Positions 26,633 through 27,622 of a stretch of 64,000 bases of DNA are shown piece by piece. Below the pieces are notes generated by a model. It was not told the DNA's origin. It was given only the letters and a program-made list of their open reading frames with translations, and did no database searches. Position numbers and translations under genes: made by a program. Source of the DNA: Gemmatimonadales bacterium (GTDB lineage Bacteria > Gemmatimonadota > Gemmatimonadetes > Gemmatimonadales > GWC2-71-9); assembly GCA_033764615.1 (NCBI GenBank), contig JANRIU010000007.1:16314-80313 (forward strand). The letters are read 5' to 3'. How positions within the stretch are numbered: the first letter of the stretch is position 1; each line of letters starts with the position of its first letter.

Positions 26633-27622
26633 TCAGACCCCCGCCCCCGCCTCCAGCACCGGTGCCGTCTCCCCCACCAGCCGCTCGCTCAACGCCCACA
26701 GCCGCCGCCCCAGCGCCTCCTCGCTCGCGCGCGCCGTGAGCGGCTGCGCGAACGCCTCGCGGCCGGCGCGCTGCCGGTTCCCCCAGCTCCAGTGCACGCC
26801 CGACTGCGCGAAGCCGGCGTCGGCCACCACCATCGCCGTCCGCTCCCCCGCCAGCGCCTGCGTGACGTAGCCCTTCGTGATGTGCTTCTGGAACCACGGG
26901 AAGACGACCTGGAAGAGCCTCGGCGTCTCCCGGAAGAGCGCCGTGTCGGCGACGCAGCCGGGATACAGCGTGTTGCACACGATCCCCGTGGCCGCGTGGT
27001 AGCGCCGGTGCAGCTCGCGGCTCGTGATCATGTTGCACAGCTTGCTGTCCTTGTACGCCTTCCCGGGCTTGAACGGCCCGCCGTCGATCATCGCGATCGG
27101 CGCCTGGAAGCCCGCCTCCAGCCCCTCCAGGTCGCCGAGGTCGGCGGGCGCCGGGATCGGGATCCTGCCGCCGAACTCCTCGTAGTTCGCCGTGACCGTG
27201 CCGAGCGTGATGAGCCGCGCGGGTCGGCTCGCGCGCTGCAGGAACGGCAGCAGCAGCAGCGAGAGGAGGAAGTGGCCGAGGTGGTTCGTCGCCACCGCCG
27301 TCTCGAAGCCGTCGGGCGAGAAGGTCGGCGCCGGGCGGCGCGGCTGGTAGACGGCGGCGTTGTTGAGCAGCGCGTCGAGCGGGAGGCCGGTGGCGCGGAA
27401 CGCCTCCACCGCGCGCCGCACCGAGGCGAGCGATCCGAGGTCGAGCGGCAGCAGCGTGCGCCGGTCGGCGGGGAACGCCATCTCAGCGGCGACGCGCTCG
27501 GCCTTCGCGACGTCGCGGCACGCCATCACGACGTGCCAGCCGCGGTCGAGCAGGGACTTCGTGGCCCAGAGCCCGACGCCGCTGGAGGCGCCGGTGATGA
27601 GGCAGACGGGAGCGGAGGACAT
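26633..27622 (-). CDS. por: Light-dependent NADPH:protochlorophyllide oxidoreductase (LPOR)
   Basis: SDR GASSGVG and catalytic YKDSK, plus LPOR-specific segments '[15 protein letters not shown]', '[12 protein letters not shown]', '[13 protein letters not shown]', '[16 protein letters not shown]' that I recognise from cyanobacterial Por. Start ATG 27622. Confidence 0.9.

Follow-up and report, generated by a model that had tools for sequence, protein, structure and literature searches.

An intact light-dependent protochlorophyllide oxidoreductase gene unlinked to the photosynthesis gene cluster of a putative anoxygenic phototroph in the Gemmatimonadales

A gene on the minus strand of a Gemmatimonadales genome (26633–27622) encodes what is, by sequence, a genuine and intact light-dependent protochlorophyllide oxidoreductase (LPOR). 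The positions refer to the window, i.e., the whole 64,000-nucleotide stretch of DNA that was analysed (contig C9:16314-80313). With a probability of roughly 92%, we take the protein to be a functional LPOR that takes part in bacteriochlorophyll a synthesis in an anoxygenic phototroph, obtained through an old horizontal transfer and unlinked to the photosynthesis gene cluster.

The open reading frame for LPOR (protein P0001; 26633..27622, minus strand, stop codon included) starts with an ATG at 27622 and contains 329 codons plus the stop, giving a protein of 329 aa. A longer frame starting with a TTG and reaching 27688 was rejected, as its extra 22 residues are matched by no homologue. The homologues vary between 314 and 352 aa in length, and the alignment with them begins at residue 1–5. 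The NCBIfam equivalog model for LPOR (TIGR01289) matches residues 5–317, which corresponds to positions 4–313 of the 315 profile positions, with a score of 443.7 bits compared to a cut-off of 331.35. The runner-up NCBI family, a generic SDR subfamily, reaches 136 bits and stays below its own cut-off, and the Pfam match to adh_short (E 2.3e-20) covers the N-terminal SDR core alone (residues 6–147).

Comparison with solved structures showed that residues 4–317 align to the LPOR of T. elongatus (PDB 6l1h, E 1e-132) with a single one-residue indel. The E-values for the LPORs of Thermosynechococcus and Synechocystis (6l1h, 6rnv, and 6r48) range from 1e-130 to 1e-132, and Arabidopsis PORB is found with an E-value of 1e-95. 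The best seven distinct sequences among the solved structures are all LPORs, and the best non-LPOR chain has an E-value of 7.7e-21. The protein is 61–75% identical to LPORs, while its nearest paralogue within its own genome, an SDR, shares 31.6% identity. An initial annotation had described the gene product as an SDR carrying LPOR-specific segments throughout and as an LPOR of the cyanobacterial type. This identity is borne out by the TIGR01289 score above the cut-off and the full-length alignment to the Thermosynechococcus LPOR, and all of the quoted segments could be located in the protein, starting at residues 155 (PIPAPADLG), 190 (YKDSKLCNM), 219 (LYPGCVADT), 241 (FPWFQK), 249 (TKGYV), and 277 (HWSWGNRQ).

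The glycine motif for NADPH binding, a defining feature of LPOR (PMC7947762), is found as GASSGVG at residues 11–17 (27572..27592, minus strand) and is identical in the aligned T. elongatus LPOR. The insertion that is specific to LPORs when compared to ordinary SDRs spans residues ∼148–186 (27065..27181, minus strand; estimated boundaries) and includes the PIPAPADLG segment. This region aligns to the T. elongatus LPOR without gaps, and the generic SDR Pfam models end at residue 147. The catalytic YxxxK motif consists of Y190 and K194 in YKDSK (27041..27055, minus strand), as assigned from conservation and from the catalytic Tyr and Lys of LPOR named in PMC7947762. Y190 is present in 96/96 aligned LPORs and K194 in 95/96. 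Cys223 in LYPGC (26954..26956, minus strand) is equivalent to Cys226 of T. elongatus and is likewise the same in 96/96 sequences.

To evaluate conservation, the window protein was aligned to 95 further LPORs of cyanobacterial, proteobacterial, or Gemmatimonadota origin, and columns with at least 97% agreement among the other sequences were regarded as near-invariant. The window LPOR keeps 110 of these 111 columns, and ten other LPORs of the 96-sequence set deviate from near-invariant columns more often. The sole departure is F216C: Cys216 (26975..26977, minus strand) replaces a Phe seen in 93 of the 95 other LPORs. The reference LPOR sequence around this position reads GIVFNSLYPGC. Retained residues include C35, R36, K40, T142, Y190, K194, C196, Y220, C223, and Q245. 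Three of the four "conserved" LPOR cysteines are thereby present (C35, C196, and C223), and the second position is occupied by Asn87. Asn is also found at this position in 14/16 betaproteobacterial and 4/24 Gemmatimonadaceae LPORs, and the cyanobacterial LPORs have C (21 sequences), I (4), or V (3). With Asn and other residues occurring here across LPORs, the second cysteine is not strictly defining.

The initial annotation had further suggested a phylogeny that separates LPORs from SDRs of the retinol-dehydrogenase-like or WWOX-like kind, and the window protein falls inside the LPOR tree (maximum likelihood, 96 sequences, LG+C20, rooted on cyanobacteria). The cyanobacterial LPORs form one clade (support 100/98), and the window protein is placed on the non-cyanobacterial side, in a region of the tree that holds mostly Gemmatimonadota and Betaproteobacteria. 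Here it is sister to a Gemmatimonadaceae LPOR (genus code g111) with a support of 93/92, and its end branch is 0.44 long compared to a median of 0.11. The Gemmatimonadaceae LPORs are polyphyletic and interleaved with those of Betaproteobacteria, with seven label changes. This agrees with the repeated transfer of LPOR between these groups that has been published (PMC7947762). Rooting with an SDR outgroup (the closest SDR of the genome) was also tried and was rejected: the outgroup branch reached 10 changes per column and the window sequence was drawn to the root, a placement we treated as long-branch attraction.

The GC3 of the LPOR gene is 0.96 and matches that of the neighbouring genes, so the gene was not recently received from a donor of lower GC. 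The LPOR gene would have been passed on horizontally among the non-cyanobacterial (AAP) LPORs, and probably not recently.

The host genome is 3.28 Mb in size (103 contigs, 74% GC) with an estimated completeness of 97.7% and a contamination of 0.37%. A search for public sequencing runs that might tell of its habitat or expression turned up none. One of its contigs, C91 (37.7 kb), carries a photosynthesis gene cluster. Two Photo_RC matches (pufL/pufM) were found on this contig, and the pufM model TIGR01115 gave 516 bits. Profile searches identified PuhC, PufM, PufA, PufB, BchO, BchZ, BchY, BchP, BchG, PpsR, BchN, BchB, BchH, BchL, BchM, and PuhA on C91, together with a BchX-like gene besides BchL, and the contig also encodes a B12-binding CarH-like regulator. 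The DPOR subunits all score above the cut-offs of their models (TIGR01281, 440 bits; TIGR01279, 512 bits; TIGR01278, 622 bits). Of the two cyclases, AcsF is encoded on C91 (478 bits) and BchE on contig C102 (807 bits). The large subunit of RuBisCO (PF00016) has no match in the host genome.

As had been pointed out from the window alone, no bch, puf, or acsF gene is found there, and the matches in the genome are all located on C91 and C102. Two options had been offered for this situation: the host could be phototrophic and have its photosynthesis cluster at another place, or it could be a non-phototroph whose LPOR is an orphan or has been repurposed, with a genome search for pufLM, bchLNB, bchXYZ, and acsF to tell them apart. 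All of these genes were found on C91. The first option is thus the one that stands, and the second is refuted by the cluster.

The genetic rule for a putative AAPB (Chernomor 2021, PMC7947762) calls for three subunits of DPOR, a reaction centre of type II, and either or both of AcsF and BchE, and also demands that RuBisCO and/or phosphoribulokinase are missing. Given that DPOR subunits, PufLM, and AcsF/BchE are present and no RuBisCO large subunit was found, the host is a putative anoxygenic phototroph, aerobic or semi-aerobic, that carries DPOR as well as LPOR. With two cyclases and two protochlorophyllide reductases, it appears to be equipped for low-oxygen as well as oxic conditions.

The PufM of the host (C91:24431-25648, minus strand) is ∼405 aa long and continues for ∼85 residues after the pufM model, with its 305 positions, has ended. 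Alignments of 342–374 residues to other Gemmatimonadales PufM proteins were obtained with tblastn, which suggests that the C-terminal tail is common to the order.

The host genome is the sole species of its GTDB genus. It belongs to another GTDB family (f1) than Gemmatimonas phototrophica AP64 (f2), within the same order. Among 201 sampled genomes from 78 genera of family f1, LPOR was found in the host genome only, and reaction centres were found in three, namely the host and two genomes of genus g19, both without LPOR. A sample of 401 genomes from the order contained 19 other LPOR holders, all of them in f2 and distributed over six genera; of the 87 Gemmatimonas species, 30 carry LPOR. A tree of PufL and PufM places all Gemmatimonadales reaction centres in a single clade (95/95). 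The PufLM of the host pairs with that of G018, one of the two g19 genomes (100/100, 86% identity), and the pair branches outside the Gemmatimonadaceae clade. Judged from this tree, the photosynthesis cluster of the host is of a deep-branching Gemmatimonadales type. LPOR is present in the host and missing from G018, its sister reaction-centre lineage.

The two g19 genomes, G018 (C41, L111) and G091 (C7, L112), differ in their type of reaction centre, and the PufLM of G091 nests inside the Gemmatimonadaceae clade. This mismatch suggests either that the cluster was replaced or transferred inside the order or that the binning is at fault.

It is tempting to see the host as a previously undescribed phototrophic lineage from a second Gemmatimonadales family, with a deep-branching reaction-centre type of its own (shared with G018 only) and an LPOR that was separately acquired or retained. 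We put forward this proposal tentatively and give it slightly less than an even chance. If true, photosynthesis genes and LPOR may have been present earlier in the order, or additional transfers may have taken place. A survey from 2023 found no phototrophy in high-GC, soil-type Gemmatimonadota (PMC10581226).

The linkage of LPOR to the photosynthesis cluster rests on the binning of an assembly in which the two are on separate contigs among 103. C9 and C91 could in principle come from two organisms of the metagenome, and a cluster is unexpected a priori when just 3/201 sampled members of the family have a reaction centre. Both contigs are however typical of the bin, with GC contents of 74.6% (C9) and 73.5% (C91), within 73–75%, and tetranucleotide distance ranks of 27th and 35th among 82 contigs. 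Known phototrophs of Gemmatimonas and Burkholderiales have a GC much below that of either contig. As the composition is typical and the closest PufLM comes from the same family, which is expected of a native cluster, misbinning is unlikely, and the estimated contamination of 0.37% points in the same direction. We consider an origin from two organisms very improbable.

Also very doubtful, and still harder to maintain, is the idea of an orphan or repurposed LPOR that reduces another substrate in a host without bacteriochlorophyll synthesis. The 64-kb window without photosynthesis genes, the neighbours unrelated to pigments, and the unusual F216C substitution would all fit such an enzyme. Yet the same genome has a complete cluster, including the enzymes that would produce the substrate and consume the product, and the protein retains 110/111 near-invariant columns. 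A location outside the cluster is moreover usual for LPOR in such bacteria. In 24 Gemmatimonadaceae LPOR loci, not one cluster gene lies within ∼8 kb of LPOR, and the few Beta- and Gammaproteobacterial loci with cluster genes nearby have bchP/G, bchH, or acsF, at one locus each. Among the non-cyanobacterial genomes with close LPORs, 16/18 contain pufLM elsewhere. Since LPOR is usually unlinked and the host is a phototroph, the unrelated neighbours do not signal a new function.

Two LPOR-bearing MAGs, Gemmatimonas sp. ME2006-08-18D11 bin76 (L016) and Lysobacterales MAG Co_metawrap_2570 (L011), gave no Photo_RC match. Incomplete assembly is the likely reason, although these two would be the candidates if a real orphan LPOR were sought.

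The genes around LPOR were identified with Pfam searches, and the neighbours are those that the initial annotation had named. Directly upstream lies an HbpS/GlcG-like gene (27755..28171, minus strand; PF03928, E 1.8e-38), followed by an iorAB-like pair with a molybdopterin subunit (28267..30459, minus strand; MoCoBD_1/2) and a 2Fe-2S subunit (30456..30947, minus strand; Fer2_2/Fer2). Directly downstream is a repeat protein (24088..26334, frame to 26579, minus strand), which has no Pfam match. It is 750–840 aa long with "WNGS.W" units, and no link to LPOR was seen.

In the upstream intergenic region of 132 nt (27623..27754, minus strand), neither a PpsR box nor a sigma-70 promoter or a terminator could be recognised. 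Boxes of the type TGT-N12-ACA occur three times in the window, where 2.6 are expected by chance, and none of them is upstream of LPOR; co-regulation of LPOR with the photosynthesis cluster is thus not supported. A scan for sigma-70 promoters and terminators around the LPOR gene found nothing.

The window genome has an iorAB-like pair within a few kb of LPOR, and so does one subclade of Gemmatimonas LPORs, to which AP64 belongs. The loci with such a pair are L094:2415-5210, L016:3389-6186, L047, L025, L064, L109, L019/L099, and L105, and it is absent from the proteobacterial and cyanobacterial loci compared. The IorB proteins near LPOR share 33–41% identity between the window and the Gemmatimonas loci, while relatives in the family share 45–55%, and this is therefore not a shared segment. 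The chance of iorAB adjoining LPOR is roughly 1%, with ∼3 iorAB copies per genome, and the proximity may be a coincidence. In the best iorB orthologue regions of 10 relatives, iorA-iorB is kept with no GlcG, LPOR, or other window neighbour alongside. As relatives do not share the synteny of this locus, either a gain of LPOR in the host or a loss in the sister lineage could account for its distribution. The HbpS/GlcG-like gene belongs to a family that binds or degrades haem, and none of the same 10 relatives has it beside iorAB. Among the LPOR loci compared, it is found next to LPOR in the window alone, and this places a member of a tetrapyrrole-binding family beside a tetrapyrrole enzyme.

There is also scant reason to believe in a decaying relic, i.e., an intact frame in which selection has ceased to maintain LPOR activity, DPOR being enough: the long terminal branch and the lack of LPOR in the sister reaction-centre lineage G018, which shows LPOR to be dispensable in family f1, would agree with it, but there are no stops or frameshifts, 1/111 near-invariant columns is altered, which is fewer than in ten other LPORs, and with a GC3 of 0.96 the gene is fully adapted in its codon usage. 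With the near-invariant columns kept, the long branch comes from variable positions, where change was plausibly driven by the GC content of 74%.

A functional LPOR within bacteriochlorophyll a synthesis thus remains the preferred reading, and its role might be as follows. BchH/M, together with AcsF and BchE as the cyclases, would supply protochlorophyllide. Its C17=C18 bond could then be reduced by two routes, either by the oxygen-sensitive, ATP-dependent DPOR (BchLNB) or by LPOR, an oxygen-tolerant single-subunit photoenzyme. DPOR is described as performing the same step in the dark and as being oxygen-sensitive (PMC7947762). Based on its family membership, LPOR is predicted to bind NADPH and protochlorophyllide. 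A photon absorbed by the bound protochlorophyllide would lead to transfer of a hydride from NADPH to C17, and protonation at C18 via the Tyr/Lys site would yield chlorophyllide. This may be converted further to bacteriochlorophyll a by BchXYZ, BchC, BchG, and BchP. LPOR would most likely serve as a back-up for DPOR in oxic, illuminated conditions and keep pigment synthesis going under oxygen and light. Those AAPB LPORs that have been tested are genuine LPORs, and G. phototrophica is among the LPOR holders (PMC7947762). In G. phototrophica, light and oxygen have only a weak regulatory effect on the photosynthesis genes (PMC11406998).

The occurrence of LPOR in an anoxygenic phototroph is an already published phenomenon, and what is mildly new is the host lineage in another family of the Gemmatimonadales. 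The genome adds an LPOR and a full cluster from a family other than that of G. phototrophica and G. groenlandica. Its value is modest and evolutionary, as one more observation bearing on a published model, the "cascade of horizontal transfers". This model has LPOR passing from cyanobacteria to Alphaproteobacteria, on to Betaproteobacteria, and then to Gemmatimonadota, and its authors explicitly requested more non-oxygenic LPORs with which to test it (PMC7947762).

The closest known system is G. phototrophica AP64, whose LPOR (protein P0077, CP011454.1:3631789-3632739) is 72% identical to the window LPOR. Like the host, AP64 is a phototroph of the same order with a type 2 reaction centre, DPOR, and an LPOR gene outside the cluster, and both have the iorAB-like pair a few kb upstream of LPOR. 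The genes between iorAB and LPOR differ, with GlcG in the window and phosphoglucomutase and PP2C in AP64. The window LPOR is also placed outside the main Gemmatimonas subclade, where it pairs with the g111 sequence on a long branch, and the host differs from AP64 in its family and has a GC content of 74%.

The LPORs of proteobacterial AAPB (Dinoroseobacter shibae, Limnohabitans, Erythrobacter, and others) belong to the same non-cyanobacterial clade and share 64–75% identity with the window LPOR, which has Asn in place of the second Cys in common with most betaproteobacterial LPORs. DPOR and LPOR are found together in Dinoroseobacter, Limnohabitans, and G. phototrophica (PMC7947762), where the study of AAPB LPORs by Kaschner 2014 is also cited. 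The proteobacterial enzymes come from another phylum.

The cyanobacterial LPORs of T. elongatus (6l1h/6rnv) and Synechocystis (6l1g/6r48) have the same catalytic and cofactor residues as the window LPOR. The cyanobacterial loci show 61–68% identity to it, and their sequences make up the separate clade (100/98). The fate of the product would also differ: in the host, chlorophyllide is predicted to be turned into bacteriochlorophyll a via BchXYZ, whereas in cyanobacteria it ends up as chlorophyll a.
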